From positions 29,923 to 93,922 of the forward strand of contig JAEZMD010000003.1 in the NCBI GenBank assembly GCA_023435745.1: a stretch of DNA of 64,000 nt, written 5' to 3'. This stretch comes from Bacillota bacterium (GTDB lineage Bacteria > Bacillota > Clostridia > Acetivibrionales > DTU013). Each line of letters starts with the position of its first letter. Within the stretch, counting starts at the first letter, position 1. A program made the translations under genes and the position numbers. The notes beneath the pieces were generated by a model. That model ran no database searches. It saw nothing but the letters and a program-made list of their open reading frames with translations, and was not told the origin of the DNA. Shown here piece by piece: positions 7,970 through 45,474 of the stretch.

Positions 7970-8234
7970 TTTGCGGTAACTACCGCGACACTAGTTTAAA
8001 GACATGACCACCCGTTTTACGGGTGGTTTGCTTTGCAGTCATTCCGCCATAGCGGAATCTGACTAAAATCGAGTGAGGCTCTATGCCCCCGAGATTTTTA
8101 TTTAAAAAGAAAAAAATCAACGATACGACCGAAACAGACCCCACTACTCGTTTTTACAGTTTTAGGACTATATTAGCTGAGAATAGGTCTCATTTTATGG
8201 ATATTTGGCTATAATATAGGCTTTTTTATGATTT

Positions 8235-10946: not shown

Positions 10947-11007
10947 ATGAATTCCTCCGTAACTATGCTAAAATGTTAACAAGTACTATTTTACTCAATA
11001 TGGTACC

Positions 11008-11055
11008 ATTATACAACACGATGCATAAATATGCAACACTAATTATAAATATACA
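11008..11055 (-). promoter_or_regulatory. argGH promoter with two ARG-box-like operators (candidate ArgR/AhrC site)
   Basis: Minus strand: -35 TTGCAT (11036..11031), 17-nt spacer, -10 TATAAT (11013..11008). A perfect palindrome TGCATAaaTATGCA (11022..11035) overlaps the -35. A degenerate copy ATTATAAATATACA (11042..11055, 10/14) lies 20 bp away. The resemblance to ARG boxes is from memory of the consensus. Confidence 0.5.
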
Positions 11056-11102
11056 CAAAGGTATCAGGAGGCACCGAATAACCCGGACAAGGATGTGTAC
11101 AA

Positions 11103-11594
11103 ATGATTATTATGGGGATCGACCCTGGATTTGCAATAACGGGATATGGTATAGTAAAATATGAGGGGAACAAATTTTCGCCCCTGGAATACGGCGCGGT
11201 GCTGACAAAGGCCGAAACGCCTTTTGCGAAGAGACTTTTACAGTTGGATGAAGAGCTTGCTCAGGTGATTAATAAATACAGGCCGCAGGCAATATCGGTG
11301 GAGGAGCTGTTTTTCAGCAAAAACATCAAAACGGCAATCATGGCTGCCCACGGCAGGGGAATTGCAATGGCCGCGGCTGCCAGATCAGGCGCCGAGGTTT
11401 TCGAGTATACGCCGTTGCAGGTGAAGCAGGCGGTGGTGGGCTATGGCCGGGCGGAGAAGGCACAGGTACAGCAGATGGTGAAGGCGATCCTCAATTTGCC
11501 TGCCGTCCCAAAACCGGATGATGTGGCGGATGCGCTTGCGGTTGCCATATGTCATGGCCACTCGGCAAAGCTTGCGGGGTTGGGTTACCAATAG
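11103..11594 (+). CDS. ruvC: Holliday-junction resolvase RuvC
   Basis: [18 protein letters not shown]... with the catalytic Asp-containing N-terminus, and ...[12 protein letters not shown] near the C-terminus. 163 aa. Confidence 0.9.
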
Positions 11595-11689
11595 AATAAG
11601 GGGATAGAACAGTGGACAGTTCTCTGTTCTGACTCCGGGGTACATTATAAAATAGAGAACCGTCCCCGGTTCTAAAGCGGAGGATCAAC

Positions 11690-12295
11690 ATGTATGCATA
11701 CATAAAAGGTAGTCTGGAAGCCAGAGGCAAGGATCATATCATTATTGAAGCCGGCGGAATCGGCTATAAGGTTTTTGTCCCTCTGACCACTTTGGAGGCG
11801 GCAGGACAACCGGGACATGAATTCAAGATTTTCACGTATCTCTATGTCAGAGAGGATATCATGAGCCTGTTTGGATTTGCCACACAGGAGGAGCTTGGAA
11901 TGTTTGAACTGCTGCTCACTGTATCGGGGGTCGGTCCAAAGGTCGCGCTGTCACTGCTGTCAGCGGTTTCTCCATCCAGATTCGGACTTGCCGTAATCAC
12001 AGACGACGCCAAAACTCTGACCATGGCGCAGGGTGTTGGTGCAAAGGTAGCTCAGAGGATCATCCTGGAACTGAAGGACAAGATCAAGAAGGAGCAATTG
12101 GCTATGGCAGCCGGGATCGGACCGGATAAATCCAAAGCCTCGCCGGGAGGATCCAGACTTTCAGAAGCAGTCAGCGCGCTTATGGTCCTGGGCTATTCAC
12201 CTGCTGAAGCCAGCAATGCGGTGGCTTCAGTGTACTCGGATGAACTTGATCTGGAGACGATTATAAGGAGTTCTTTGAAGGGACTGATACGATGA
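11690..12295 (+). CDS. ruvA: Holliday-junction branch-migration protein RuvA
   Basis: MYAYIKGSLE...GIGYKVFVP, the HhH region LLTVSGVGPKVALSLLS, and a C-terminal domain III. 201 aa, located upstream of ruvB. Confidence 0.9.
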   Translation: MYAYIKGSLEARGKDHIIIEAGGIGYKVFVPLTTLEAAGQPGHEFKIFTYLYVREDIMSLFGFATQEELGMFELLLTVSGVGPKVALSLLSAVSPSRFGLAVITDDAKTLTMAQGVGAKVAQRIILELKDKIKKEQLAMAAGIGPDKSKASPGGSRLSEAVSALMVLGYSPAEASNAVASVYSDELDLETIIRSSLKGLIR

Positions 12296-12356
12296 GAAGC
12301 AGAGGGCATTACCCGGCTCCTGCCTGTGTATTAATACTTAAACGGGGGAAGTACAG

Positions 12357-13388
12357 ATGGATGAAGAGAGACTGATTGAAGCGAATCCTGTCAGTGAAGA
12401 CATTGATGATACCAGCTTGCGGCCGAAAAAATTCGATGAATATATTGGACAGACAAAAGCGAAGGAAAACCTGAATATTTTCATTGAAGCCGCCAAAAAG
12501 CGTAAGGAAGCATTGGACCATGTCCTGCTTTATGGACCGCCCGGACTTGGCAAGACCACTTTGGCTGGCATTATAGCTTCGGAATTGGGCGTGAATCTCA
12601 GGATTACCTCCGGTCCCGCTATAGAAAAGCCCGGCGACCTGGCGGCTATATTGACCAACCTTGGCAGCTACGATGTGCTTTTCATCGATGAGATTCACCG
12701 GCTTAACAGGAGCGTTGAGGAGATTTTGTACCCGGCAATGGAGGATTACGCCCTTGATATCATCATAGGCAAGGGGCCAAGCGCCCGCTCTATCAGGTTA
12801 GATCTTCCGAAATTTACTCTGGTCGGAGCGACAACAAGAGCGGGATTGCTGACAGCTCCGCTGCGAGACAGGTTTGGCGTTATCAACAGACTGGAAATGT
12901 ACAATAATGAAGAATTGACGCGTATTGTAAAACGTTCCGCGGGCATACTGAACATTGCCACAGAGGAGAAGGGCGCCATGGAAATTGCCCGCAGATCCAG
13001 GGGGACTCCCAGAATTGCCAACAGGCTGCTTAAAAGGGTGCGCGATTTTGCGCAGGTCAAGGCCGACGGCATCATTGACGAGTCAGTGGCAGCGATTGCG
13101 CTCAGCGCTTTGGAAATCGATGAGATTGGACTGGACAACAACGACAGGTGCATGCTATGCAGCATTATTGAGAAATTTGACGGAGGGCCGGTGGGTCTGG
13201 ACACGTTGGCAGCCTGCATCGGAGAGGAGTCGGAAACCATCGAAGATGTTTACGAGCCGTATCTGCTGCAGCTGGGCTTTATCAATAAAACACCGAGGGG
13301 CCGGATGGCGACGAAATTGGCGTATGACCATCTGGGATTTAAAATGAAAAAGGAACCCTATGGGCAGGAGGAAATGAAGTTCGAATGA
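12357..13388 (+). CDS. ruvB: Holliday-junction ATP-dependent DNA helicase RuvB
   Basis: [12 protein letters not shown], Walker [10 protein letters not shown], Walker [10 protein letters not shown], and sensor [18 protein letters not shown]. 343 aa. Confidence 0.95.
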
Positions 13389-13404
13389 AGCTACTGATGC
13401 ATAT
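13374..13404 (+). repeat. direct repeat copy 1 (ATGAAGTTCGAATGAAGCTACTGATGCATAT)
   Basis: 30/31 identical to 16521..16551 in the same orientation. It contains the last ruvB codons plus the TGA. On the other strand it contains the last codons and stop of the GT-C gene. Confidence 0.9.
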
Positions 13405-15034
13405 CAACTGTGTCAATGAGCTTCAACATATTGAAACCGTCAACATCAGCGGCTTCAATATAATTGTGTACAATGAAATCCTCCCACTGCTGCTTGTTGT
13501 CTAGAAACCCCAGAAATTCCTCATACCATAAGGGATCTACAATCAGCATTACCGGATGCCTTTGCAACAACTCGCTCACAGCCTCTGCTACCATCTCTTT
13601 TCTCCTCTGCGTTGTAAAGGACTCAAGATTTATTGGAAGGTAGCTGTATTTTGACGCAGCTAAACGTTTCGCCCTGTAGAGTACTGTAGTTGCTCCTGAA
13701 TAAGTGAGGAAGTATATACGGTCATCCGGTTCTGTATTTTCAACAATATAACGACTTAGCTTATAAGATATCGTATCTTGAATATAAGCGGCTTTTTGCA
13801 GGCTGGTGATTATGACCTTGTTATTGCTTTGGATATTATTAAGCGAAAGAGACAGGCAAATTCCGGAGATAACAACAATAGAAGTAAATTTCAGTCCGGC
13901 AGCTTTTTTATTCAGTATCAGGAGCAGCTTTAGAACCAGCTTGTATAATATGTCCCAGAAGATAACGGAAGGTATCAAAATGATAGGTATAAAGCTCATA
14001 TAATAATGCGGATGGTACACTCCTGAGATTGAGTTCGCATAGATATTTAGAGCAAAAGCAAAAGTTGAAGAAATTAACAACAACAGCCTTTCGATTTTGA
14101 TTTGCTTTCTTGTTGACGCCATATAGACTGCTGTGATTATAAAGAAAAAAAACAATATGTAAAGATATGAATTGTTCAACTTGGCCATCATCCGCAATGT
14201 GACCTTCAGCTTTACATGCACAGTAGGAGGATTAAAGCCTTTCATTACGCCAAGATATGCACTATTCAGGCATGCGGTAAGTGCATTGTTTCTATACAAG
14301 TAAAAAGCTATCGGAATGGCAACCGAAATCATACCGGTCAAAACCAGTAATCCGTAGTTTATGATTGCCATATAATTTCGCTCTACAATCAGCACGGTTA
14401 TTAAAACCAACCCAAATGCTGCAAATGCTGCAACGAGATTTGCACGCAATAAAAACGCTCCGGCAAACATGGCGCCGGATATAGTACATTGATACCATTT
14501 CAGAGAATAGTTCTGAAAATAGAATTTTGATAAAATATAAATACCGGCACAAATAAAAGGAAGTGCGTACTCCTCCGAAAGGTTACCCCTTTCCAGCAGC
14601 AGTGGGAGCATTAAAAAAGTGTATATTACAGAAATAACCGATACACCTCGCCCTGCAAACAGTCTTGCCGTATTGTATGCAAACAGTACAGCAATATATA
14701 GCGAAAGTAATTCAATCAGGAATATTCCATATCTCTCATGTATCAAAACTCCAAAAAAGTTAATGAAATAAAGCAGAGGGCCCTTGTTTTCCCACAGTTC
14801 TGTGTAAAGCACAAGCCCTTTCTTAATTCCAAAGCCGATATATGCAAAAATACCGGCATCATGTCCGAGATTAAAATCCGAAAAAGGCATGAAATGGCTT
14901 TGCAGAGAAAGATACAATGCAAGAATTAACATGAACATGTAAATTAATACATCACGAAATCGAGAAAATGTTTCAGCTCCCTTGGCGAATTGGCCTTGTG
15001 GCATTATACCTCCTGATTTTTCTTTGATAATCAT
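13391..15034 (-). CDS. polytopic membrane glycosyltransferase, GT-C-like (ArnT/PMT/GtrC-type partner)
   Basis: 547 aa. Many hydrophobic helices span roughly the first 400 aa, followed by a soluble C-terminal domain of about 130 aa. An Asp-containing early loop reads FNLGHDAGIFAYIG. It lies immediately downstream of the GtrA-like and GT2 genes. The family call rests on architecture and context, not motif-level homology. An alternative start is ATG 15004, behind AGGAGG. Confidence 0.6.
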   Translation of the reverse strand: MIIKEKSGGIMPQGQFAKGAETFSRFRDVLIYMFMLILALYLSLQSHFMPFSDFNLGHDAGIFAYIGFGIKKGLVLYTELWENKGPLLYFINFFGVLIHERYGIFLIELLSLYIAVLFAYNTARLFAGRGVSVISVIYTFLMLPLLLERGNLSEEYALPFICAGIYILSKFYFQNYSLKWYQCTISGAMFAGAFLLRANLVAAFAAFGLVLITVLIVERNYMAIINYGLLVLTGMISVAIPIAFYLYRNNALTACLNSAYLGVMKGFNPPTVHVKLKVTLRMMAKLNNSYLYILFFFFIITAVYMASTRKQIKIERLLLLISSTFAFALNIYANSISGVYHPHYYMSFIPIILIPSVIFWDILYKLVLKLLLILNKKAAGLKFTSIVVISGICLSLSLNNIQSNNKVIITSLQKAAYIQDTISYKLSRYIVENTEPDDRIYFLTYSGATTVLYRAKRLAASKYSYLPINLESFTTQRRKEMVAEAVSELLQRHPVMLIVDPLWYEEFLGFLDNKQQWEDFIVHNYIEAADVDGFNMLKLIDTVDMHQ

Positions 15035-15042
15035 TTACTTCT

Positions 15043-15798
15043 TTATATTATTCCTAGACGAAGTTTAAAAGCAGTGATAATACTGCTCTTTATGGTCTTC
15101 ATGACACTCAGTTTACTTTTGCCCTGTTTGAAATCATATCTTAGGATAAACGGAACTTCAGAAAATTCTGCTCCGGACTTGTATAGCTTATAAAGTATTT
15201 CCATCATACAGGCGAAGGAATTCTGGGTAATAATACTGTCTCCATATAAATTGAAAGACCTTCTTAAAATATCATAGGTATATGCCCTGTATCCACAGGT
15301 ATAATCCTTTACCGAAGGTATAGGTAGTAAGAGCTTATAATAAAATTTTGCTCCAAGACTCAGAAAATTCCGGTAACCCGGTACGCCAACAACATCTGAA
15401 CCTTGAAGATAACGTGATGCAATAGTGCAGTCAAAACCCTGCTCAAGTTTGTCCAGCAGGGCTGCCGCATATTTGGGGTCATGGGTATTATCTCCATCCA
15501 TGACAAAACATATATCACCAGACCTGAACTCATCAAGAAAATATCTGAATCCAGTAGATATTGCACCACCTAGTCCGGTGTTTTTCTCATGCGCAATTAG
15601 AATGACTCTCTCATTTTGTCCGGCTAATTTTTCGACTATAGCTTTTGTAGAATCAGTACTCTTGTCATCAATCACGAGAATGTAAAGTTCATAACCTTTT
15701 TGTCCCAGCTTATCTGTTTCATTCAGCCAGGCGTTTACCAAATCACGAATATTTTTCTCCTCATTATAGCAAGGTAGAATCGCTAGTATTTTTTCCAT
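15043..15798 (-). CDS. GT2 polyprenyl-phosphate sugar synthase (GtrB/CsbB/DPM1-like)
   Basis: ILPCYNEEKNI, VIDDKSTD and FVMDGDNTHDP (DxD) match the classic GT2 family-2 fold. 251 aa. Confidence 0.85.
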   Translation of the reverse strand: MEKILAILPCYNEEKNIRDLVNAWLNETDKLGQKGYELYILVIDDKSTDSTKAIVEKLAGQNERVILIAHEKNTGLGGAISTGFRYFLDEFRSGDICFVMDGDNTHDPKYAAALLDKLEQGFDCTIASRYLQGSDVVGVPGYRNFLSLGAKFYYKLLLPIPSVKDYTCGYRAYTYDILRRSFNLYGDSIITQNSFACMMEILYKLYKSGAEFSEVPFILRYDFKQGKSKLSVMKTIKSSIITAFKLRLGII

Positions 15799-16237
15799 CC
15801 GTATCCCCGCCTCTTTTTTTAATTAGATTAAAAAGAAGTTTTCTTATTTCATAAAGTACGAAAAATGGTATTGCTATGGAAAACCCCTTACTTATAAGCA
15901 GATTCAGGTTCTTATCAAGACTGTGCGGAAGTGATTCGCTAGAAAGCCAAATAATCCAGTCCGCCAACAGCAAACCAAATAGAAATGTTCCGATAAATAT
16001 AAGAAAACCTGGAATTCCGTACTCTATAAAAAACACATATCTGGAAACCAGAAAGTACTGTAAAATAGAGCCTGAGACCACACCAATCGTATTCGCCCCT
16101 ACAATTCCCATGTTAAGACTATTACGCAATATCCATACAATAGATATATCCAGAATAGTAACAATTACGGAAATACAAAAATAATTAATGATATTTCTAT
16201 TCTTTTTAACCAAGCCGGTTAATTTATCAACAAACAT
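15764..16237 (-). CDS. GtrA/GtcA-family small membrane protein
   Basis: 157 aa with four hydrophobic helices. It is the first gene of the three-gene unit and overlaps the GT2 start by 35 nt. Size, topology and context fit the GtrA family. Confidence 0.75.
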   Translation of the reverse strand: MFVDKLTGLVKKNRNIINYFCISVIVTILDISIVWILRNSLNMGIVGANTIGVVSGSILQYFLVSRYVFFIEYGIPGFLIFIGTFLFGLLLADWIIWLSSESLPHSLDKNLNLLISKGFSIAIPFFVLYEIRKLLFNLIKKRGGDTDGKNTSDSTLL

Positions 16238-16287
16238 AATCCACCAAATAATGACAATTTAATATTTGATTTCTTTAATCTTGACAA

Positions 16288-16316
16288 ATTTTATATTAAT
16301 TATGCACAAAAGTCAA
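16288..16316 (-). promoter_or_regulatory. sigma-A-like promoter for the GtrA/GT2/GT-C unit
   Basis: Minus strand: TTGACT (16316..16311), 17-nt spacer, TAAAAT (16293..16288), about 50 nt upstream of the GtrA-like ATG. The context is AT-rich, so a chance match is possible. Confidence 0.35.
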
Positions 16317-16520
16317 TAGTGTACATATTATAAGTAATTCGTCTTAAATTTGTGAGTAATTTGTCTACGTAATTCACGCCTGCTCATTTTCTGAACTCTC
16401 ACGTAAATAATTTGAGTCTTTGCAGGGAAACAAAAAAAGGCGGAGAAATGTTTAAGATATAGTAGTATAATGTATTGAATGAAACAGAATCCGAAATATT
16501 AAGAAATTGCTTTTGGGGAG

Positions 16521-16551
16521 ATGAAGTTCGAATGAAGCTATTGATGCATAT
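16521..16551 (+). repeat. direct repeat copy 2 (ATGAAGTTCGAATGAAGCTATTGATGCATAT)
   Basis: 30/31 identical to 13374..13404. It contains the queH ATG (16532) and first codons. In another frame it holds a relic ..MKFE* identical to the ruvB C-terminus. Confidence 0.9.
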
Positions 16552-17047
16552 GTGCTGCGCTCCGTGCTCCACATACCCTCTTTCCGTACTGAGGAAGGAG
16601 GGAATCGAGCCGACGGGCGTTTATTTCAACCCCAACATCCACCCGATCGAGGAGTTCCAGAGACGAAGCGCTACCATAAAAAAGTTTGCGGCTATTAAAG
16701 GCTTGACGGTCCAATATTTCGACGATTTCATGCAGCCGGACTGGGAGAAATTTAATGGGCCGGAGGATGCCAGGTGTGCCATGTGCTATGCCATTCGTCT
16801 TCAAAAGTCAGCCGAGCTGGCGGCTTCAGGGGGCTATGAGGCTTTTACGACATCTCTTCTTGTCAGCCCTTATCAAAAACATGATCTTATCAGGCAGCTG
16901 GGTGAAAAATATGCCGGTCAGTATGGCGTCGTCTTCTATTACAGTGATTTCCGACCAGGCTTCAGGAAGGGCCAGTCGGAGGCAAGGGAATTAGGCCTCT
17001 ATCGCCAGAAATATTGCGGTTGCATCATTTCGCTCAAAGGAAAATAG
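16532..17047 (+). CDS. queH: epoxyqueuosine reductase QueH (DUF208)
   Basis: The N-terminal MKLLMHMCCAPCS and the C-terminal YRQKYCGCIIS Cys cluster form the QueH/DUF208 signature. I trimmed the ORF-track start 16475 to ATG 16532. Confidence 0.88.
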   Translation: MKLLMHMCCAPCSTYPLSVLRKEGIEPTGVYFNPNIHPIEEFQRRSATIKKFAAIKGLTVQYFDDFMQPDWEKFNGPEDARCAMCYAIRLQKSAELAASGGYEAFTTSLLVSPYQKHDLIRQLGEKYAGQYGVVFYYSDFRPGFRKGQSEARELGLYRQKYCGCIISLKGK

Positions 17048-17180
17048 TGCCTTAACATTCATATTACAATATAGTTAAAATATATTTAAAACTATAGAAA
17101 TATAATCTATTCCGTCGAATTATCTGTTATGATGATATAAACAAACGATAATCTTTTGTAAAATACGACGGGGTGCCATC

Positions 17181-18836
17181 ATGAAGAGGTTCTTATCTGC
17201 CATTCTCACCATTATGCTAATTTTCATGCCAACTGCAAATGCATCTGTTTTTGCGCAAACGGTAGTGGACGCAAACAATGTCAAAGGAGTATTGAAGGAG
17301 GTCCGATATGCGCCGGAGAATGGGTATGAAGTAATCCGACTGTCCATAGACGGGTTTTCGGGCTACACCTATATGGAGTTGGCGGATCCGTATCGAATTG
17401 TGATTGATCTGAATAATACCTCATTAACAAGAAAACCAAATACACTTAAAGCGGGAGGCAAATTGGTCAGCCGCGTCAGGTATGCCCAATTTACCACGAC
17501 CACGACCCGTGTTGTTCTGGATGTGAACGAGGGCTATGATTTCTCCATTGAGACAACTGATACAGGACTTGCCGTTTATGTTGAGGAAAAGAAGACGCCT
17601 GAAGCCCTGAATGACGCCAAGGCTATCATGTTCAGCAAGGAACTGGGTATCAGGTATGTCAAAGACGGATCAAACGATGCGGTATCTTTAACATTGGGTA
17701 AAGTTGACGGGTACAGCGTGTCAAGACTGACAGGTCCGGACAGACTTGTGCTTAACATTCCTGACGCCGGGGTTGTCAGCACGGATAAACAGGTGAAAAC
17801 AGGCTCGGATCAGATCCAGTCCATCAGTTATGAGAAAACCGGAAAAACAGGCGCAAGTATTACATTGGGACTGAGCGGCCAGTACGGGTATGGCTTTGAA
17901 GATTCCGAAAACGGTCTGGTTATGACGGTGCAGAGCCCTTCCTACAAAAATATTGAATATCACAGCTACAGCGACAGGATTCACTTTACACTGAATAATG
18001 CGATGCTCACTGAGGGAGATAAAGAATTGAAGCCTCTGTATGAAGCCGTATACAGTGATAAATCAAGACGGTATACAGTGACCTTTCCTACAGAGCAGGC
18101 GGATCTTGGCGAGGGGATACTTGACATAAACGATTCTTATCTTAAATCCCTTGAGATCAGGAAAAACAATGAGGAAGGCACAACTTCGCTGATATTTACC
18201 AGCAGGGCGAAGAATTCTTATCTTGTTTACACGAGAAGCTCTGGAACAACGGCTATCACAGTAATCAAGCCTGCGGCGGAAAATAAAAAGCCGGTGGTGA
18301 TCGATGCAGGTCATGGCGGTTCTGCAATCGGCACAGCATACGGAAAATTGACAGAGAAGGAGCTGACGCTGGACATTGCGAAGCGTCTGGACACTCTGCT
18401 TGAGAAAAAGGGGATCAATACTTATATGATCAGGTCCGAGGACTGTAATGTGGACAATTACGAGAGGGCATATATTGCGAACATGATAAATGCAAGGCTT
18501 TTTGTCAGCGTGCATATCAACGGTATGGAGTCAAGGAGCTTCAAGGGCACCATGACGTTATACTGCCCCTCCGAGAGCAAAGACTTCACAGGTATGGACC
18601 TGGCAGCCATTGTTCAGAAAAATATGATCAAAGCACTGAAAACAGAGGACATAGGCCTCAGGTCGAGGCCGGATCTGATCGTACTGAGGGAAACCGCTAT
18701 GCCTGCTGTTTTAGCAGAGATTGCCTGTATTACAAACAGCTCTGACAGAGCAAAGCTGCAGACGGAATCCTTCAGACAGAAAGCGGCACAGTCATTATGT
18801 GATTCCGTAGTGGAGGCGCTGCCAAAGGTAAAATGA
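17181..18836 (+). CDS. N-acetylmuramoyl-L-alanine amidase (Amidase_3) with signal peptide and AMIN-like N-terminal domain
   Basis: Signal peptide MKRFLSAILTIMLIFMPTANA. AMIN-like segment ..VIRLSIDGFSGYTYMELADPYRIVIDLNNT. The C-terminal catalytic domain has VVIDAGHGGSAIGT, FVSVHINGM and AVLAEIACITN. It sits upstream of gerM, a CwlD-like context. Confidence 0.85.
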   Translation: MKRFLSAILTIMLIFMPTANASVFAQTVVDANNVKGVLKEVRYAPENGYEVIRLSIDGFSGYTYMELADPYRIVIDLNNTSLTRKPNTLKAGGKLVSRVRYAQFTTTTTRVVLDVNEGYDFSIETTDTGLAVYVEEKKTPEALNDAKAIMFSKELGIRYVKDGSNDAVSLTLGKVDGYSVSRLTGPDRLVLNIPDAGVVSTDKQVKTGSDQIQSISYEKTGKTGASITLGLSGQYGYGFEDSENGLVMTVQSPSYKNIEYHSYSDRIHFTLNNAMLTEGDKELKPLYEAVYSDKSRRYTVTFPTEQADLGEGILDINDSYLKSLEIRKNNEEGTTSLIFTSRAKNSYLVYTRSSGTTAITVIKPAAENKKPVVIDAGHGGSAIGTAYGKLTEKELTLDIAKRLDTLLEKKGINTYMIRSEDCNVDNYERAYIANMINARLFVSVHINGMESRSFKGTMTLYCPSESKDFTGMDLAAIVQKNMIKALKTEDIGLRSRPDLIVLRETAMPAVLAEIACITNSSDRAKLQTESFRQKAAQSLCDSVVEALPKVK

Positions 18837-18912
18837 TTGCAACACAGCTATAATGCGTTTGTAACAAGGCTATTTCAAACAAAAGAAATAGATAAATATT
18901 TATAAAAATACT

Positions 18913-18946
18913 CAGCAGAATTTATGAATTCTACTGATATTTTTTA
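18913..18946 (+). terminator. probable intrinsic terminator after the amidase gene
   Basis: CAGCAGAATT / AATTCTACTG stem (9 of 10 bp), loop TATG, then ATATTTTTT. Confidence 0.5.
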
Positions 18947-19103
18947 TGGGATTCCTGTGATAACATTAGAATAGGATATGAGCACATTGATTTTAGCTTA
19001 AATGTGATTGATAAATGAATATAAACGGTATAAATATCGTGGGAAATAATAGAAATCTTCGAAGTTGTCCATAATCTCTATAGAGTTTAACAAGGAGGAC
19101 GAT

Positions 19104-20429
19104 ATGAGAAGATTCATCGTTGTGTTTCTCGCGATACATATGCTTTTGCTGACAGGGTGTACGATTCCTTTTTTCGGGAAGTCAGAGAATGACCCCACGG
19201 TTGTTACAGATGAGAGTGGGCTGGTCAGCGTTGATGACAATGACCGGGAGGGGGAACAGATCGGCGGGCTGGACGGTGCAGGTACCGATCTTGGTATTGA
19301 TTCTGAATCCAGTTCCGATTCTGAGTCCGTCGCCGATCTCGAATCCACTGCGGATACCGGATACGGTTTTCCAGATAATGACGGCCTTGTGGCAGACGAC
19401 GCCGCAGAACTGCCGGAGACGGAAACAACCGGAACAACCGGAGCAACCGGAGAGGAAGCTGCAGACAGTGTGTTATACATAACAGATCCGACCGGCACGG
19501 GTGATGAAACAGGAGTACTGGCTGCTCAAAGTGATTCGGGCAGCAGCGTATTTTTTTCAGAACCAAGGCGTTCTGTCACTGTATATTATCAGGACGGGGA
19601 TGGATATCTAGTCCCGATGACCAGATGGATCGAAACGCAGCCAGGTATAGCAAGGGCTTCTCTGAATCTGGTGATCGACAGTGCACTGAACCGGGAAGAA
19701 CTGGCATATTACGGGGTGTACCCGGTTATACCGGAGAATACCGAGATACAGGGCATAGATATCAGAGAGGGCATAGCGACTGTCGATTTTAACAGGCATC
19801 TGCTCAATTATGACAGCGCGTTGTCAGAGAGAAATATTGTCGCTTCGATTGTTTATACAATGACGGAGTTTGAGACAATTGAACGAGTTAGAATCTTGAT
19901 CAATGGCTATCCGCAGGGCTTCCTGAAGTATGGGACCGACCTTGGAAAGCCGTTGGGGCGTGATGACGTAATGATCAATGGGGAGCTTGCACTGACACCG
20001 GCTGAAACGTCCAAGGTTGATGTTTTTATGATGAAGCAGGCAAATACCGGCTTTATCTACCCGGTTCCGCTTTCTGCAGTAGATACGACCGATGCCGATT
20101 ATCTGCCGGAGATCCTGGTAAAGCAGTTGCTGGACACGAAAACGGAAGGTCTGCTGGTCAGTGAGATTCCGCAGGATGTTGTTTTGTTAGATACAAGCAT
20201 TGTGAATGGAATTATTACGCTGAATTTTAGTGAAGAATTTATGAACTATGGCGGCACTGCACGTGAAGAGGGGATTCTAAAGCAACTGGCCTATACGCTG
20301 CGGCAGTGCAATGGGATCAGAAGGTTGAGGATTATAGTTGGGGGACGCGAGGTCGAATTGCCTGAGGGAACGGATATATCACAGGGATTGGCGATCCCTG
20401 TTACAATAAATGATGTGATCGACAGATAA
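19104..20429 (+). CDS. gerM: GerM-like sporulation/germination lipoprotein (two GerMN-type domains)
   Basis: AGGAGG RBS before ATG 19104. Lipoprotein signal MRRFIVVFLAIHMLLLTGC. An acidic linker is followed by two similar modules (VTVYYQDGDGYLVPMTRWI.. and VDVFMMKQANTGFIYPVPLS..). The following rdgB and ysnB-like genes match my recollection of the B. subtilis gerM region. Confidence 0.75.
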   Translation: MRRFIVVFLAIHMLLLTGCTIPFFGKSENDPTVVTDESGLVSVDDNDREGEQIGGLDGAGTDLGIDSESSSDSESVADLESTADTGYGFPDNDGLVADDAAELPETETTGTTGATGEEAADSVLYITDPTGTGDETGVLAAQSDSGSSVFFSEPRRSVTVYYQDGDGYLVPMTRWIETQPGIARASLNLVIDSALNREELAYYGVYPVIPENTEIQGIDIREGIATVDFNRHLLNYDSALSERNIVASIVYTMTEFETIERVRILINGYPQGFLKYGTDLGKPLGRDDVMINGELALTPAETSKVDVFMMKQANTGFIYPVPLSAVDTTDADYLPEILVKQLLDTKTEGLLVSEIPQDVVLLDTSIVNGIITLNFSEEFMNYGGTAREEGILKQLAYTLRQCNGIRRLRIIVGGREVELPEGTDISQGLAIPVTINDVIDR

Positions 20430-21795: not shown

Positions 21796-24573
21796 ATGCG
21801 GGGTGAAATATTGATACATAATAAACGTTTTTTCAAAGTCCTTTTGATTCCTGTTACTTTTCTTTTAGCAATTACATTGATTTTATCGCCTAAAGTATAT
21901 TCTGCTGATTCAGAGGCCGATGTTACCGTTGAAGTTAAGGGCGGTTTTGATGGAGTGGCAAGACTGGGGGCGTATATTCCCTATAGAATCATGCTCATTA
22001 ATAAGGGAAGGGCTGTTGAGGGAGAAGTACAGGTCGAAATCAAGATTGACAGTCAGAACAAAACCGTTTTCTCCAAGCCGGTATCCCTTGCCGAAGGCGT
22101 TGTCAAGGAGGTAGTAATCGACGCGCCTGTCTTTACCGCAAGAAAAGGAGTAAAGATCAAGTTCCAGGAGAATGGTAAAACCATAAAAGAGTTGGAATAC
22201 AACTTTTTAAAATTAATTCCTCCCGAGATGAAAACCATTGGCGTATTAAGCTCGGATAATGCTGCATACGACTTTTTGAATGGTATGACGATACCACAAT
22301 CAAACGGTGATATGGCATATGATGAAAAAATGAAGCTGATGCAGGCCGCCGGAATGTATCCGGGCGCTTCCGTCGCAACTGCTCAAGCCGTACCGGTTGG
22401 TTCTATAACGGAATCGGAAAGCATACTAATTCCGCTGGACGGTGGGAGCTTTCCTGACGATATCAGGATCATGAATGGGTTTGATATTCTGATTATCAGC
22501 AATTATGATACTGAAACATTGTCTGAAAATCAAATGAGTGTGCTTGAAAGTTGGACCGAGAGCGGAGGCACACTGGTCATTGGAACCGGTGCAAATTGGA
22601 AGAAGGTTTACTCTTCTCTGCCTGAGGCCATGCAAAGGTTTTCTGTATCAGGCACATCCTCCGCCGTTCCGCCGGAAGAGCTGGAAAACTATGCGGGAGC
22701 AGCTTTTTCAGGCGATGTGATTCTTGATACTGTTACGGGGGAGATCGGTTTTGAATATGCACAGCCTGTAGCAGACAGTACGGACGGGTCAAATGAGGAT
22801 GAGAATAACGCGGTCGGCAAGAATGCAAGCGTTGATGCGGATGAAGAGAAGCAATGGGTTTATAGTTCAAATATTGATGAGGTGATCATAGGGGATAGCG
22901 GCAGCCCTCTGGCGGTGAAATATATTCACAAATCCGGGCGGATACTTTTTCTGGCTTTTGATCCCGGAATGGAGCCTGTTGCAAGCTGGCAGGGGAAACA
23001 GTCCTTCTGGGAAAATCTTCTGTATCATAGCGGCAATTCTAACAGAGTATACGAAAGAGGCCGGGGATATTACTATTCCAATCAAGACATCTACTACACG
23101 AACAGTCTGACATCTCAGGTGCCGGACGACAGGACGCCGCCGTTCCTGTTTATGTTTATAACGATCGGAGTATATATCATTATTGCCGGGCCTGCCATGT
23201 ACATCTTCTTGAAGCGAAAGGACAAGAGGGATTTCAGCTGGCTTGCGGTACCTGCTGCTGCTCTATTATGTCTTGTTGTCATATACTTTGTTGGATTTAA
23301 AACAAGATATAAGACAGCGGTTTTTAATACAGCCTCGATGATCCATCTGGATATGGAGAACCAAAAGGCTGATATCACAACAGGTATGGGCATTTTCAAC
23401 AATAAGAGAGGTGATCTGAAGCTCACCTACTCAGATGAGGATAACATAGAGTTTGATGTTACCCAGTCCGAAAATCGTAGTTATGTTGTATATGAGGACG
23501 GGAGGGAGCCTGAGGGCAAGGTCGTAAGCAAGCTTGTGTTCAGTGAACCAATGAATTATATGCTTTATGACGTTTCAATGTGGGAACCCAAATATCTTTC
23601 CGCAAAAAAAAGCGAGCCCTTCACAGATCAAATAATCGGCTCTGTTAAAATTGAGGACGGTAAATTCAGAGCAGTAATAAGCAACAGGACCAAATATGAC
23701 TTTATGGAAGCATTTATCACAGTGGGAAACAACTTTATCAGTGCCGGGGACATCCTTTCAGGGAAAGAAAAAACGATCGAAGCGGATTTTAATTCAGACG
23801 GAGTACTTCATAGCTTTGAGGAATACCTGAACGCACAGTATGGCCGGACAAGCTATCCCTCCAATACGGCGCTTTCTGATGATTTTAAAGAAAGGTACAG
23901 GAAAAGAATGACAGTTGAACAGCTTCTCGAGCCTATGCTCTACAGCCTGAGAGGGCAGACCAAAATAGGGTTGTTCGCATTGAATAATCAAAACCTCGGC
24001 TTTAATATTACAATAAATGATGAGACACCTGTATCCTATTATACAAATGGAATATTTACAAGTGTCGATATGATTTTTGAAAAGGGCAGCGAGGTAGATA
24101 TCCCCGCAGGTGTCATACTACCGCAGATCGATGAATATAGCCAAAACGTTGCAAGTACTGAAGGGGACAACGGAGTCAGAATAAGAAATAAAGGCGATAT
24201 CGATTTTACATATTCACTGCCCGAGGGTATCCTGTCAACCGGATTTTCTCTTAAATTTGATACTTATGTACCTCTTCATGTTAAGTACAATATGGAAGAT
24301 ATGGCGGCGCAAAACAGTAATGTGCAGACAAGGATCCTGCAAAATCAGTATGAATATTTTCTGTATAACAAAGCGTCTGATAACTGGGAGCAAATAGAGG
24401 ACAATCATGGCGTGGCTGAAAAAGCCGATCAATATATTGATGATGAAAACAGGCTCAAGGTCCGCGTAAAGGTAGTGGAAATTGCGGAAGCGGACATGAA
24501 ATCCAATGATGGATATGTCGAGACTGAGCGGCTGGCGTTCCCGGCGCTGCAACTGAAGGGGGTGGTGCGGTAA
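21796..24573 (+). CDS. large envelope protein of unknown function (about 920 aa), possible GldG-like auxiliary component of the adjacent ABC-2 transporter
   Basis: Signal peptide (..FLLAITLILSPKVYSADSE). Two central TM helices lie around 23130..23300, separated by KRKDKRD, giving two large extracytoplasmic halves. The segment DILIISNYDTETLSENQMSVLESWTESGGTLVIGTG resembles ABC-auxiliary/GATase1-like modules. The real start may be TTG 21811 behind GGGGTGA, because TATAAT abuts ATG 21796. The stop overlaps the ABC ATPase start (TAATG). Confidence 0.7.
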   Translation: MRGEILIHNKRFFKVLLIPVTFLLAITLILSPKVYSADSEADVTVEVKGGFDGVARLGAYIPYRIMLINKGRAVEGEVQVEIKIDSQNKTVFSKPVSLAEGVVKEVVIDAPVFTARKGVKIKFQENGKTIKELEYNFLKLIPPEMKTIGVLSSDNAAYDFLNGMTIPQSNGDMAYDEKMKLMQAAGMYPGASVATAQAVPVGSITESESILIPLDGGSFPDDIRIMNGFDILIISNYDTETLSENQMSVLESWTESGGTLVIGTGANWKKVYSSLPEAMQRFSVSGTSSAVPPEELENYAGAAFSGDVILDTVTGEIGFEYAQPVADSTDGSNEDENNAVGKNASVDADEEKQWVYSSNIDEVIIGDSGSPLAVKYIHKSGRILFLAFDPGMEPVASWQGKQSFWENLLYHSGNSNRVYERGRGYYYSNQDIYYTNSLTSQVPDDRTPPFLFMFITIGVYIIIAGPAMYIFLKRKDKRDFSWLAVPAAALLCLVVIYFVGFKTRYKTAVFNTASMIHLDMENQKADITTGMGIFNNKRGDLKLTYSDEDNIEFDVTQSENRSYVVYEDGREPEGKVVSKLVFSEPMNYMLYDVSMWEPKYLSAKKSEPFTDQIIGSVKIEDGKFRAVISNRTKYDFMEAFITVGNNFISAGDILSGKEKTIEADFNSDGVLHSFEEYLNAQYGRTSYPSNTALSDDFKERYRKRMTVEQLLEPMLYSLRGQTKIGLFALNNQNLGFNITINDETPVSYYTNGIFTSVDMIFEKGSEVDIPAGVILPQIDEYSQNVASTEGDNGVRIRNKGDIDFTYSLPEGILSTGFSLKFDTYVPLHVKYNMEDMAAQNSNVQTRILQNQYEYFLYNKASDNWEQIEDNHGVAEKADQYIDDENRLKVRVKVVEIAEADMKSNDGYVETERLAFPALQLKGVVR

Positions 24574-39671: not shown

Positions 39672-40556
39672 ATGAACAGGGTTCTTGGAGATAGAAAAGC
39701 GATCTGTGTATTTGTATTACCGGCATTGATTGTATTTCTGGCAATCGTTGTTACACCGGTTTTCATGTCGGGCTATTACAGTCTGCTTGAATGGGACGGT
39801 ATAGGGAAGAGCACGTTTGTGGGCATGGAGAATTATGTAAAATTATTCACGGATTCTTCAACCAATTTCATAAAGGCGATAGGCAATTCCTTTATCCTGG
39901 CCGGACTTTCGATACTGATTCAGCTTCCGGTCGCCATGATATTGGCGCTAATACTTGCACGGGGCATAAAGCTGGAAAACTTTTACCGAACAGTATACTT
40001 TATACCTGTGATCATTTCAACCGTAGTTATTGGGCAACTGTGGAGAAAGGTATATCATTACGACTACGGACTGCTAAACAGTCTTTTCAAGGGCATCGGG
40101 CTGCAAGCGCATCAGCAGGAGTGGCTTGGCAATATGGATACTGCGCTTATGGCTGTTTTGGTGCCGATTATATGGCAATATATGGGGTATCACCTGCTGC
40201 TTTTCTATTCGGCGGCAAAATCCGTACCCGTTGAACTGAATGAAGCTGCGATGCTGGACGGCGCCTCAGGCTTCAAGACATCACTTTTTATTACTATACC
40301 GATGATAAGACCAATGATAAATGTTTGTGTGACTTTTTCACTGATAGGATCGCTGAAGGTCTTCGACCTCATATATGTCCTGACGAACGGCGGACCTGTG
40401 CATTCTACGGAAGTTCCAAGCACACTTATGTTCAATACCATATTTTCCAGATACCAGTACGGCTATGGCAGTTCAATGGCCATTTTCATAATAGTCGAGT
40501 GTCTTTTGCTCACGGTATTGATACAAAGAATGTTCAAATCTGATAATGCGGCATAG
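39672..40556 (+). CDS. sugar ABC permease (MalF/UgpA-like)
   Basis: GGAGG RBS before ATG 39672 (MNRVLGDRKAICVFVLPALIVFL..). Six TM helices and an EAA-type loop (AAKSVPVELNEAAMLDGASGFKT). Confidence 0.9.
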   Translation: MNRVLGDRKAICVFVLPALIVFLAIVVTPVFMSGYYSLLEWDGIGKSTFVGMENYVKLFTDSSTNFIKAIGNSFILAGLSILIQLPVAMILALILARGIKLENFYRTVYFIPVIISTVVIGQLWRKVYHYDYGLLNSLFKGIGLQAHQQEWLGNMDTALMAVLVPIIWQYMGYHLLLFYSAAKSVPVELNEAAMLDGASGFKTSLFITIPMIRPMINVCVTFSLIGSLKVFDLIYVLTNGGPVHSTEVPSTLMFNTIFSRYQYGYGSSMAIFIIVECLLLTVLIQRMFKSDNAA

Positions 40557-40603
40557 CTTGGTTAAAATTAGACAATGCCTTGATGACAGGGAATGAAAGG
40601 ATC

Positions 40604-41488
40604 ATGATGAATACGGAGATAAAAAAGATCGTTGCCGATACCGAAATGAACAGGTATATTTATAAAAACAAATTAAAATCAGCCATTATCAATATCGTGA
40701 TCATGGTTATCGCTCTTGTGCAGATGTATCCTCTTGTCTGGCTTCTGCTGTTTTCTCTCAAGGACAACAGCGAGATTTTCGGCGAGAACATCGTCGGGCT
40801 GCCGCGGCGTTTCCTGTGGCAGAATTATGCGGACGCATTGTCACAGGGCAATGTTGGACGGTATCTAATTAATAGTATAATCGTTACCGGAATAACAATT
40901 CTTCTATCGGGAGTGTTAGGCGTAAGCGCTTCCTATGCAATAGCCAGAATGAAGTGGAAGCTGAGGAAACCGGTGCTTGTCGTTTTCCTGATGGGCATGA
41001 TGGTGCCGCTGCATGCAGCTTTGCTGCCCCTGTTCCTGATATTGAAAAATTTGAAGCTGTACAACACCTATTGGGCTCTGATCGTACCCTATACGGCATT
41101 TGCGCTGTCCATGGGCATATTTGTGTTTGTGGGATTCTTGCAAAGCCTCCCAAAGGAGCTTGAGGAATCTGCTCTTATCGATGGATGCTCAATTTACAGG
41201 GCATTTGTCAGTATCATCCTTCCACTCATCAAGCCGGCGATAGCCACTGTTTCCATATTCACATATCTTTCTGCCTGGAATGAGCTGATGTTTGCCATCC
41301 AGTTCATAAGCAAGCAGGAATATAAGACCCTCACTGTCGGAATCATGGCGATGGTTGGTCAGTATTCCACCAACTGGGGGCCTATCGGGGCTGGTCTGGT
41401 GATTGCGACGGCGCCTACTCTCGTCATCTATATCCTGATGAGCAAGCAGGTTCAGAAGAGCTTCATAACCGGCGCCGTAAAGGGCTAA
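40604..41488 (+). CDS. sugar ABC permease (MalG/UgpE-like)
   Basis: EAA-type loop LQSLPKELEESALIDGCSIYRAF and six TM helices. Start is uncertain (40583, 40604 or 40607). Confidence 0.9.
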   Translation: MMNTEIKKIVADTEMNRYIYKNKLKSAIINIVIMVIALVQMYPLVWLLLFSLKDNSEIFGENIVGLPRRFLWQNYADALSQGNVGRYLINSIIVTGITILLSGVLGVSASYAIARMKWKLRKPVLVVFLMGMMVPLHAALLPLFLILKNLKLYNTYWALIVPYTAFALSMGIFVFVGFLQSLPKELEESALIDGCSIYRAFVSIILPLIKPAIATVSIFTYLSAWNELMFAIQFISKQEYKTLTVGIMAMVGQYSTNWGPIGAGLVIATAPTLVIYILMSKQVQKSFITGAVKG

Positions 41489-41685
41489 GGGGTGATGGGG
41501 ATTCCATAACTGATGGAATCACTAAACTCACCCTCGAATCTTGTGTCAATGATATTGAGGTCGCTGCCCTCTTCTATTTTCTTTTGCAGCTGCGCAGGAG
41601 AGAGTAGCTTTATGCCCCTGTTAATGGCATTGTCCAGAATCATGCCGGTATACATGCGTGCCAAGGCCTGAAACAATACGTTCAT
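41485..41685 (-). pseudogene. remnant of a rhodanese-domain gene (possibly the C-terminal junction of a CoA-disulfide-reductase/NADH-oxidase-rhodanese fusion)
   Basis: The 66-aa ORF ..GMILDNAINRGIKLLSPAQLQKKIEEGSDLNIIDTRFEGEF.. reads like the start of a rhodanese domain. It breaks off before the active-site loop and runs into the 3' end of the permease gene. A stop lies two codons upstream of its ATG. Confidence 0.4.
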
Positions 41686-42013
41686 GCATCATGAGGACGC
41701 TTTGTATTACAAACTGCTCAAACGATGTCGACAAGCCAATGGAGAATTTGGAATCAAAGTATAAAGATCATATAATTTTTCCTTTATTTTATGTATATTA
41801 TTTAATAAAGTGAAAGCGTATAATTAAAGATGAAATATCAAAGGACCAAGTAGTAAATGCGTTAGGAAACAGTGTAGGAGCAATACATCTTCAGGGTGCT
41901 ATGTTAAATAACAGAAAAAAGTCAAAATAGTTATGAAACAGTGAACATAATATTTCCAGCCGATGGATATTGGGATACAGGCGTGTGCCGTTCTTGAAAA
42001 GTTGGAGGTTAGT

Positions 42014-44329: not shown

Positions 44330-44335
44330 TAATGG

Positions 44336-45286: not shown

Positions 45287-45474
45287 AATCTAATTATATA
45301 TAAAAAATTTTTTTTTTCAATATTGCCAAATTTCCATTCCACTTAGCAGCCGATAAGCGCGTATGATATGGAGCAAGAGTTGACGATATTTATTAAATAC
45401 AAATCAAAATAAAATAATCCCCATTTGCAACGATGTAATATTAATATGGTATAAATTAAACTTAATCAGGTACA

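Follow-up and report, generated by a model that had tools for sequence, protein, structure and literature searches.

In a 64,000-nt stretch of a metagenome-derived Bacillota contig (JAEZMD010000003.1; we call this stretch the window and use its positions throughout), three glycosyltransferase-related genes lie between ruvB and queH, on the opposite strand, and are bracketed by two direct copies of the ruvB-stop/queH-start junction. The evidence largely shows that this 3.1-kb insert is a compositionally foreign, horizontally acquired islet. Our favored explanation, which we hold with moderate confidence, is that the islet lacks an integrase and that the duplicated junction offers att-like homology for host recombination, which would drive gain, exchange, and loss of the islet. 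The locus was first singled out by reading the DNA by itself, without database searches; we will refer to that reading as the original prediction.

The upstream copy of the repeat (copy 1, 13374-13404) is ATGAAGTTCGAATGAAGCTACTGATGCATAT, and the downstream copy (copy 2, 16521-16551) is ATGAAGTTCGAATGAAGCTATTGATGCATAT. Both are in the same orientation, they lie 3147 nt apart, and they are identical at 30/31 positions, with the consensus ATGAAGTTCGAATGAAGCTA[C/T]TGATGCATAT. (All of these values can be read directly in the sequence, as the original prediction had them.) The C/T mismatch is synonymous in both of the frames that it falls in: CTG or TTG (leucine) in queH, and CAG or CAA (glutamine) in the GT-C gene on the other strand. 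Within the 64-kb window, a search for the 31-mer with up to 3 mismatches gave these two sites only, and there were no matches in 100 dinucleotide shuffles. A repeat finder stretches the pair to 35 nt (13370-13404 versus 16517-16551, 33/35 identical); the extension contributes GGA[A/G], which is part of a Shine-Dalgarno sequence.

The two copies sit at the ends of two intact core genes. ruvB (12357-13388, plus strand) is the last gene of ruvC-ruvA-ruvB and encodes 343 amino acids (RuvB_N, AAA_lid_4, and RuvB_C in Pfam, E = 1e-83 to 4e-26). Its final 15 nt (ATGAAGTTCGAATGA), which encode the protein end ..MKFE*, fall within copy 1. At its full extent (13370-13404, around the core 31-mer at 13374-13404), copy 1 contains this ruvB end and stop and then a duplicated queH start, ATGAAGCTACTGATGCATAT. 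On the minus strand, the duplicated queH start forms the final three codons and the stop of the GT-C gene. Copy 2 (16517-16551) contains GGAG, which is the ribosome-binding site of queH; a noncoding relic of the ruvB end, ATGAAGTTCGA; and the real queH start, ATGAAGCTATTGATGCATAT. queH itself (16532-17047, plus strand) encodes a 171-amino acid epoxyqueuosine reductase that begins with MKLLMH (PF02677, E = 1e-55).

Three minus-strand genes, and no others, fill the interval between the copies. They encode a GT-C-fold membrane glycosyltransferase (13391-15034; the longest open reading frame has 547 amino acids, while gene callers give 537 amino acids with the start at 15004), a GT2 glycosyltransferase of the GT-A fold (15043-15798; 251 amino acids; PF00535, E = 4.5e-28), and a small membrane protein of the GtrA family (15764-16237; 157 amino acids; PF04138). 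The overlap between gtrA and the start of the GT2 gene is 35 nt. These are the same three genes that had been named from the letters alone: the list of open reading frames bears this out, as do Pfam for the GtrA and GT2 domains and a structural model with Foldseek for the GT-C protein. Between gtrA and copy 2 is a divergent control region that is borne by the islet (16238-16516), as outlined by a promoter scan and by a three-way alignment of the window with contigs L182 and L084. The 294-nt intergenic region has no open reading frame of 60 or more amino acids.

The original prediction had judged the islet by eye to be AT-rich, and the computed values agree. The GC content of 13405-16520 is 0.366, versus 0.491 in the left flank, 0.461 in the right flank, and 0.439 in the whole window. 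GC at third codon positions is 0.32-0.40 in the islet's genes, versus 0.52-0.60 in argG, ruvC, ruvA, ruvB, queH, and the amidase gene. The step in composition is sharp at both repeat copies. (Low GC alone is not unique to the islet: an AT-rich stretch elsewhere in the window, at ~41-45 kb, with AraC-type regulators, matches it.)

The islet does not encode any recognizable means of moving itself. None of the three genes between the repeats has a recombinase domain, whether tyrosine or serine, as judged from the open reading frames, Pfam, and NCBIfam, and Pfam finds no transposase domain among them; the original prediction had noted the lack of an integrase or transposase. Terminal inverted repeats were not found either: the left end matches the reverse-complemented right end at 22/60 positions, which is the chance level, and the repeat finder reported none. 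There is no tRNA target at the insertion site. The flanks are core genes (argG, ruvCAB, queH, and the amidase gene), with no phage genes nearby. Nor does the islet look like an insertion sequence or transposon, which usually make a duplication of a fixed 2-14 nt: here the duplication is 31-35 nt, and there are no inverted ends and no transposase.

We compared the locus to those of its relatives by searching with RuvB against one genome per species, by searching with QueH against metagenome contigs, and by looking up the nearest QueH clusters. Many relatives have the gene order ruvC-ruvA-ruvB-queH-amidase without the glycosyltransferase genes. In contigs L089-L095 and L169-L181, the ruvB stop and the queH start overlap in ATGA; L004 has TAGTG instead. 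These comparisons largely establish that the ancestral state was an ATGA overlap of ruvB and queH, with the queH ribosome-binding site inside ruvB, and that at least 10 related lineages have kept it. The 20-nt queH-start part of the repeat (the 20-mer) occurs once in L169-L171, L174, L091, L092, and L095, and twice in the island-bearing L182 and L084. The empty sites of L170 and L169 carry ...ATGAAGCTGTTGATGCATAT. The original prediction had anticipated an empty site of this kind, with ruvB and queH joined and a single copy of the repeat, and that is what L004, L089-L095, and L169-L181 have. It had also named island-free relatives with both copies as evidence against an insertion, and we found no such relative. 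In the more distant contigs L005, L006 (Ruminiclostridium papyrosolvens), L009, L010, and L012, a short spacer replaces the overlap. In the one-per-species scan, which does not include the window's species, the best match to RuvB was 86% identical. Exact-protein look-ups with the window's RuvB and QueH returned only island-bearing contigs of the same organism, and not an empty site from the same strain.

Close relatives of the islet are found in four lineages only: the window's organism, L088/L182 (Logan SRR29988989/90), L084/L085/L086 (ENA PRJEB12083 and Logan SRR8925726), and L183. In every contig that reaches a flank, the islet lies between ruvB and queH and in one orientation (L183 reaches neither flank). 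The left boundary, ATGCATAT followed by CAACTGTG, is identical in every contig that contains copy 1 (L084, L085, L086, L088, and L182). A search for the islet at other loci, as the original prediction had advised, turned up a related cassette in L087. This gtrA-GT2-GT-C cassette is 61-67% identical and is flanked by helicase genes (SNF2 on one side, UvrD on the other); the direct repeats around it do not exceed chance matches. (A homolog of the GtrA protein from R. herbifermentans, at 54% identity, sits in a different, exosortase-linked cluster and is uninformative.)

The history of the islet differs from the history of its hosts. In the ruvB comparison, there are two sister clades, A and B, which are 82% identical, and all of the outgroups are empty. 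Clade A contains the window, with the islet; L088/L182, with the islet (92% nucleotide identity to the window); and L170-L173, without it (89%). Clade B contains L084/L085/L086, with the islet, and L169, without it (92% identical to L084). We estimated synonymous divergence (dS) by the method of Nei and Gojobori. Between the two clades, dS is 1.4-1.7 for the host genes ruvB and queH. For the islet's genes, dS is just 0.35-0.49 between the window and L084 (GT-C, GT2, and gtrA) and 0.60-0.79 between L088 and L084 (GT-C and GT2). Within clade A, the islets of the window and L088 have a dS of 0.44-0.64 (GT-C and GT2), and the 3' part of ruvB has a dS of 0.34. Similarly, third-position identity between the window and L084 is 78% in the islet's genes and 52-56% in the flanks. 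The distances between islets are star-like and do not follow the host tree. Because dS is far lower for the islet than for its hosts, the islet must have passed from one clade to the other since their split, entering at the same nucleotide. Together with the identical boundaries in clades A and B, this low dS indicates repeated integration at one site in independent lineages.

Exchange is also apparent within clade B. The islets of L084 and L086 have 1 difference in ~2830 nt, while the adjoining 330 nt of ruvB have 12 differences. The ruvB end of L086 matches that of L169, an island-free contig from the same run series, at 327/330 positions. Thus, one island allele is present on two backgrounds, one of which also exists island-free. 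The switch in ancestry in L086 lies within ~35-45 nt of the ruvB stop. The flanks of L084 are of the clade-B type up to 9 nt before the ruvB stop and again from nt 9 of queH, and the drop in identity between the window and L088 coincides with copy 1.

Two side observations concern these flanks. Over 10 kb, L084 and L085 have 11 differences (99.89% identity), of which 2 are inside the 31-nt copy 1 (at 7989 and 7997 of the reverse complement); one of these changes the C-terminus of RuvB from MKFE to MKLE. This clustering suggests either a recombination hot spot or population heterogeneity that was collapsed by the assembler. Also, the window's queH is more diverged from that of the island-free L170 (dS = 1.06, nonsynonymous divergence or dN = 0.079) than ruvB is (dS = 0.64, dN = 0.009), and at informative sites it is nearly equidistant between the clades (48 versus 42). 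The extra divergence of queH may be due to recombination within queH or to faster evolution after it was uncoupled from ruvB.

The repeat copies of three island lineages can be compared in full. In the window, copy 1 reads GGAA-ATGAAGTTCGA-ATGAAGCTACTGATGCATAT and copy 2 reads GGAG-ATGAAGTTCGA-ATGAAGCTATTGATGCATAT. In L182, copy 1 reads GGAA-ATGAAGTTCGA-ATGAAGCTATTGATGCATAT and copy 2 reads GGAG-ATGGA-CTGGT-ATGAAGCTGTTGATGCATAT. In L084, copy 1 reads GGAA-ATGAAATTCGA-ATGAAACTGTTAATGCATAT and copy 2 reads GGAG-ATGGA-CTGGA-ATGAAACTGTTAATGCATAT. In both of these sister islands, decay has turned the left 11-15 nt of copy 2 into GGAGATGGA-CTGG, so that its match to copy 1 is confined to the 20-nt queH start. 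The decayed ruvB relic, ATGGACTGG, is common to islands from different host clades, which implies that the relic travels with the island and that the duplication happened once and is old. The original duplication covered at least ~35 nt, and the perfect relic in the window is a later replacement by the host's own ruvB end. Thus, the near-perfect identity of the window's two 31-mers is not the footprint of a fresh insertion: the window's copy was re-homogenized later.

The copies in L182 are mosaic. Copy 1 has a host-type ruvB end and a 20-mer with the island-linked CTA, as in the window; copy 2 has the island-type relic and a 20-mer with the host-type CTG, as in L170. This arrangement (host on the left and element on the right, then element on the left and host on the right) is the pattern expected from a reciprocal crossover inside the repeat. 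The 20-mers of the window and of L084 could have become alike since then by any of three routes, which these data do not separate: conversion between the copies within one genome, recombination with island-free DNA up to the boundary of heterology, or gap repair during integration.

Given these patterns, we propose that the islet was probably founded by a one-off illegitimate insertion and that it has carried a copy of the junction along ever since, with ATGGACTGG and the CTA variant in copy 1 being island-linked. Gain, exchange, and loss would then proceed via host homologous recombination at the duplicated junction or immediately beside it. This might take the form of Campbell-type insertion of an excised circle or of crossovers that stop at the boundary between homology and heterology. 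Precise deletion between the copies would be the reverse reaction. The same recombination would keep the copies alike, and in the window it would have brought them back to 30/31 identity. Direct repeats around the islet and a single copy at the empty sites of relatives are as expected for a duplicated target. In the original prediction, the repeat was described as att-like. This holds for its architecture (the same site, orientation, and boundaries in two host clades, as well as reciprocal polymorphisms), but the data do not point to any site-specific recombinase and are explained at least as well by ordinary homologous recombination. A bolder version is that the ruvB/queH overlap is a dedicated attachment site for a minimal, recombinase-free cassette, comprising just the cargo and a copy of the target junction, which passes from one species-level lineage to another by recombination limited to ~20-35 nt and can exit without a scar. 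We consider this version doubtful; if true, it would give small islets an easy, and possibly widespread, route into the junctions of overlapping genes.

Several points weigh against recombination at the junction by host enzymes. The evidence consists of assembled contigs, and neither an excised circle nor a polymorphism of empty and filled sites within one sample is among it. For efficient recombination, RecA usually needs a homology as long as the 20-35 nt here or longer (~25 bp in E. coli and more in Bacillus), so Campbell-type insertion that is guided purely by the repeat would be rare. Recombination in long flanks, followed by replacement of the flanks, can also yield sharp flank boundaries, and the data do not separate a crossover inside the repeat from one that stops at the boundary of heterology. 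Both 20-mers of L084 have the same two derived changes, which L169, its island-free sister, lacks, so an extra conversion step is needed under any model. The comparison of copy 2 covers three island lineages only. Finally, the L087 cassette has no repeat, so neither the duplication nor the mechanism is general to cassettes of this kind.

The duplicated junction could also be a true att site for a dedicated recombinase that acts in trans and is encoded by the host or by a helper, so that the islet would be a non-autonomous element similar to IMEX (integrative mobile elements exploiting Xer), which rely on XerCD. Such an enzyme would explain why the islet has no recombinase of its own and why it has the same nucleotide, orientation, and boundaries in two host clades, as well as the reciprocal polymorphisms. 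The dif and att cores span a range of lengths that includes 31-35 nt, so the repeat has a suitable size. However, no candidate recombinase adjoins the island; by eye, the repeat does not resemble a Firmicutes dif site, as it lacks a pair of inverted arms around a 6-8 nt spacer; the L087 cassette has no flanking repeats; and the left part of copy 2 is ~40% decayed in L182 and L084, which is unexpected for a recombinase arm that is still in use. Overall, we think that a recombinase in trans is unlikely. A single ancient insertion, with vertical descent and with precise deletion in the relatives that are now island-free, would make the repeat a passive scar. Direct repeats do permit a precise deletion that regenerates the ATGA overlap, and all islands share their boundaries and a homologous relic, so the founding duplication did happen once. 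But this scenario is contradicted by the dS of the islands across clades (0.35-0.8), which is 2-4 times below that of the hosts (1.4-1.7), by star-like distances that do not match the host tree, and by an identical island allele beside ruvB alleles that differ by 3.6%. Furthermore, the 20-mer of the island-free L169 and L170 is the ancestral one, AAGCTGTTG, and differs from the derived forms in their island-bearing sisters, which implies that these two genomes are not recent excision products of the sister islands. We reject strict vertical descent with losses, given how far island dS falls below host dS, and we view this class of explanation as improbable.

A similar verdict, marginally harsher, applies to selection for RNA pairing. 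Lacking space for a terminator, the glycosyltransferase mRNA would have to run at least into copy 1, and its 3' end would be antisense to the 3' end of ruvB in cis and, through the repeat, to the initiation region of queH in trans; selection for this pairing might keep the copies alike and would couple the output of queH to transcription of the island. The duplex could form 31 pairs without a break over the start codon of queH. The only differences between the copies, C/T in the window and A/G in L182, would each keep a G-U wobble; the two copies vary together from genome to genome; and the ruvB and GT-C stops are 2 nt apart with no terminator between them. Yet gene conversion predicts the co-variation equally well, two wobble-compatible mismatches arise by chance with p ~0.25, and L182 and L084 no longer have the leftmost 11 nt of the duplex. 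Biology also offers no evident reason for tying the maturation of queuosine to surface glycosylation, and the reading is based on sequence. (A further possibility is that, alongside its role in recombination, the duplicated junction lets a terminator-less island mRNA act as an antisense regulator of queH.) We give still less weight to a staggered cut with fill-in at each insertion, whether by a transposase-like enzyme or by end-joining capture, which would make the repeat a true target-site duplication of 20-35 nt. This fits the 20-mers of the window and L084, which are identical or nearly so within each genome and differ between the genomes at 3-4 sites. But the islet has neither a transposase nor terminal inverted repeats; the copy-2 relic goes with the island and is common to both host clades; the two 20-mers of L182 differ (island-linked CTA in copy 1, host-type CTG in copy 2); and L086 has an L084-like 20-mer in copy 1 on an L169-like ruvB flank. 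Lastly, as the window is from a metagenome assembly, the duplication might be an assembly artifact, which the original prediction had raised. This is refuted for practical purposes: two pipelines independently assembled the architecture for this organism (an ENA scaffold and a Logan contig), it is also present in three diverged lineages from other samples and studies (L084/L085/L086, L088/L182, and L183), and all of the reading frames are intact.

As the sequence itself shows, the duplication of the junction (~35 nt) lets the host tolerate the insert: copy 1 completes ruvB, and copy 2 brings GGAG and the queH start. The islet was clipped at the very end of the GT-C gene, which now extends three codons into copy 1 to reach a stop. 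Homologs of the GT-C protein stop 3-5 residues past an LKL/YKR motif, while the window's protein runs on to ..DMHQ*, with its last three codons and stop taken from copy 1, as had been predicted. In L084, the protein ends with MH* at that position because the 20-mer differs. The GT-C stop (13391-13393) is 2 nt from the ruvB stop, and no terminator was predicted between these convergent stops. Since there is no room for a terminator between ruvB and the glycosyltransferase operon, convergent transcripts are expected to overlap.

In the relatives, queH is probably translationally coupled to ruvB through the ATGA overlap. In the window, 3.1 kb of genes on the other strand stand between queH and the ruv promoter. 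The islet might supply a replacement. A block in its control region, GATATAGTAGTATAAT (16456-16471, with TATAAT at 16466-16471), is conserved in all three complete islands, while the spacer around it is otherwise 74-80% identical (window, L182, and L084). The block lies ~60 nt upstream of the queH ATG, and we think that it is likely to be an island-supplied promoter for queH. This proposal rests on conservation: because the -35 element is weak, no sigma-70 site for queH was called on the plus strand by the promoter scan. On the minus strand, the scan did find a promoter-like site for gtrA and the rest of the operon (TTGACT-17-TAAAAT, 16316-16288), which is the islet's own promoter-like sequence of the original prediction. 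An Rfam scan of 11000-19500 gave nothing credible, with no known riboswitch or small RNA in the new queH leader.

As for the cargo, the evidence largely shows that the islet encodes a complete three-component system for extracytoplasmic glycosylation. The GtrA protein scores 32.3 bits against PF04138 (the gathering cut-off is 26.1) and has 3-4 hydrophobic segments in its 157 amino acids. The GT2 protein contains DD and DGD motifs. Its nearest NCBIfam models are PgfS, AglJ, ArnC, and PpgS, with scores of 34-65 bits that are far below the curated cut-offs of 325-529; all four of these act on polyprenyl-phosphate (lipid-phosphate) acceptors. The GT2 is presumably a polyprenyl-phosphate sugar synthase. 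It has no hydrophobic segment in its 251 amino acids and hence no C-terminal membrane anchor of the kind found in GtrB and CsbB.

The GT-C protein had no match in our local Pfam and NCBIfam scans, and a profile search against PDB sequences gave no significant match. Precomputed Pfam annotation assigns it to PF27757 ("Competence-induced Ccs4 N", or Ccs4_N), and the pneumococcal protein that gave this family its name has no known biochemical function (PMC6177246). An AlphaFold2 model that was built with 38 homologs has a predicted local distance difference test score (pLDDT) of 90.8 and a predicted template modeling score (pTM) of 0.90. When we compared this model to the PDB with Foldseek, all 24 significant matches were GT-C enzymes (E = 1e-7 to 7e-4). 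The best match was ArnT (5f15, E = 1e-7, TM-score ~0.6), followed by DPY19, STT3, AglB, PglB, and AftA. The protein has ~10 hydrophobic segments. D59, just past the first loop, is invariant across the 38 homologs, as are 16 other columns. Thus, the modeled protein has a multi-spanning GT-C fold with a conserved acidic residue near the first external loop, as expected of a member of this class.

The three genes are co-oriented and overlap or nearly abut, and the L087 cassette keeps the same order. Some homologs of the GT-C protein are natural fusions, either to GT2 (~750 amino acids; P0021, P0022, P0027, P0032, P0039, and P0054) or to GtrA (~620 amino acids; P0056 and P0060). By the Rosetta-stone argument, these fusions support a functional link among the three island proteins. 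Presumably, the GT2 loads a sugar onto undecaprenyl phosphate, the GtrA-type protein serves as a flippase and/or as a membrane partner of the GT2, and the ArnT-like GT-C moves the sugar onto a cell-wall glycopolymer outside the membrane. Multi-component systems for transmembrane glycosylation include a variant with a soluble GT-A enzyme and a separate membrane protein (PMC8035078), and the combination of a soluble GT2, GtrA, and a GT-C fits this variant.

The nearest relatives of the cargo are Gram-positive systems: CsbB-GtcA-YfhO, GtlA-GtcA-GtlB (lipoteichoic acid), CsdAB/CD/EF with CflA in Lactococcus, and GacI-GacJ-GacK-GacL in S. pyogenes (PMC8035078; PMC7389260). Like them, the islet has adjacent, co-oriented genes for a GT-A/GT2 enzyme, a GtrA-type protein, and a GT-C transferase, and the output would be expected to be the same: extracytoplasmic decoration of a wall polymer, which is a typical determinant of phage adsorption. 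Unlike CsbB and GtrB, the islet's GT2 has no transmembrane anchor, which makes it closer to the variant of GacI with a membrane partner. Also, the GT-C protein belongs to PF27757, not to YfhO, GtrC, or PMT_2. We see the cargo as a new member of an established type of system, with a GT-C from an uncharacterized family. The islet's host is an uncultured Ruminiclostridium/Acetivibrio-like Clostridium from bioreactor-type metagenomes. The gtrABC cassettes of temperate phages, which are responsible for serotype conversion in Shigella and Salmonella, are likewise small, AT-rich, and mobile sets of three genes (for a flippase, a bactoprenol glycosyltransferase, and a GT-C) that alter a surface glycan. 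But those cassettes ride on prophages, beside an integrase and attP, whereas the islet has no phage genes nearby. We searched 2.9 million viral contigs and 50,697 phage genomes for homologs of the GT-C protein and found none, and a plasmid search with it returned nothing relevant. Given these results and the core-gene flanks, we rejected the idea that the islet is a prophage-borne gtrABC module.

In its mode of insertion, the islet resembles the islands and prophages that target tRNA or tmRNA genes: direct repeats duplicate a piece of the target, the interrupted genes keep their function, selection acts on the host's part of the repeat and leaves the element's copy to drift, and precise excision restores the site. 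In contrast to those elements, the islet has no integrase and no tRNA target, and its target is the stop/start overlap of two protein-coding genes. Its duplication must therefore rescue two genes at once, including a ribosome-binding site that is embedded in the upstream gene. IMEX elements, which use the host's XerCD at dif, and Campbell-type "ends-in" integration at short homologies also involve flanking direct repeats of ~28-35 nt and no element-encoded recombinase, as here; unlike an IMEX site, the islet's repeat does not look dif-like by inspection. A literature search found no pertinent prior description of insertions into stop/start overlaps or of integrase-less islets. We regard the architecture as a variant of known themes (islands that rebuild their target, and elements without an integrase), in which the unusual part is the stop/start overlap as the target, and not as a new principle.

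We noticed some other features of the window and of its relatives. The AT-rich region at 40000-45300 has GC as low as 0.335 in 3.1-kb windows and contains genes for two ABC-transporter permeases and two AraC-family regulators, one of which has 788 amino acids with dCache and GGDEF-like domains. A 925-amino acid open reading frame at 21796-24573 (plus strand) has no Pfam match at E <= 0.001; a gene for 925-937 amino acids is kept in the corresponding position, after a Metallophos gene, in L083 and L182. In L003 (8001-10705), whose RuvB is 86% identical to the window's, a Germane-domain gene comes directly after ruvB; the loss of queH and the AMIN-amidase gene there shows that deletions, too, occur just past ruvB in this clade. 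The neighborhood also varies in the presence of another small segment: a gene for a Uma2-family endonuclease (PF05685) lies beside argH in some relatives, including L084 (10672-11403) and L174 (1-732), but not at the matching site in L001, the window's organism.

Much of the variation between strains consists of small accessory islets without mobility genes, whose entry is rarely documented. This case is unusually clean, with a 4-nt overlap in many relatives, a foreign insert, and a duplication that explains how two overlapping core genes survived. When four island lineages are set beside their island-free sisters, the islet proves to have been gained or exchanged repeatedly at a single nucleotide position. 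The case also carries a warning that a near-perfect flanking repeat need not date an insertion: here, it is the re-homogenized copy of an older, decayed duplication. As to the cargo, it is expected to decorate a surface glycan, and it is probably a variable that affects the phage receptor or the serotype in uncultured, cellulolytic-type Clostridia from digesters.

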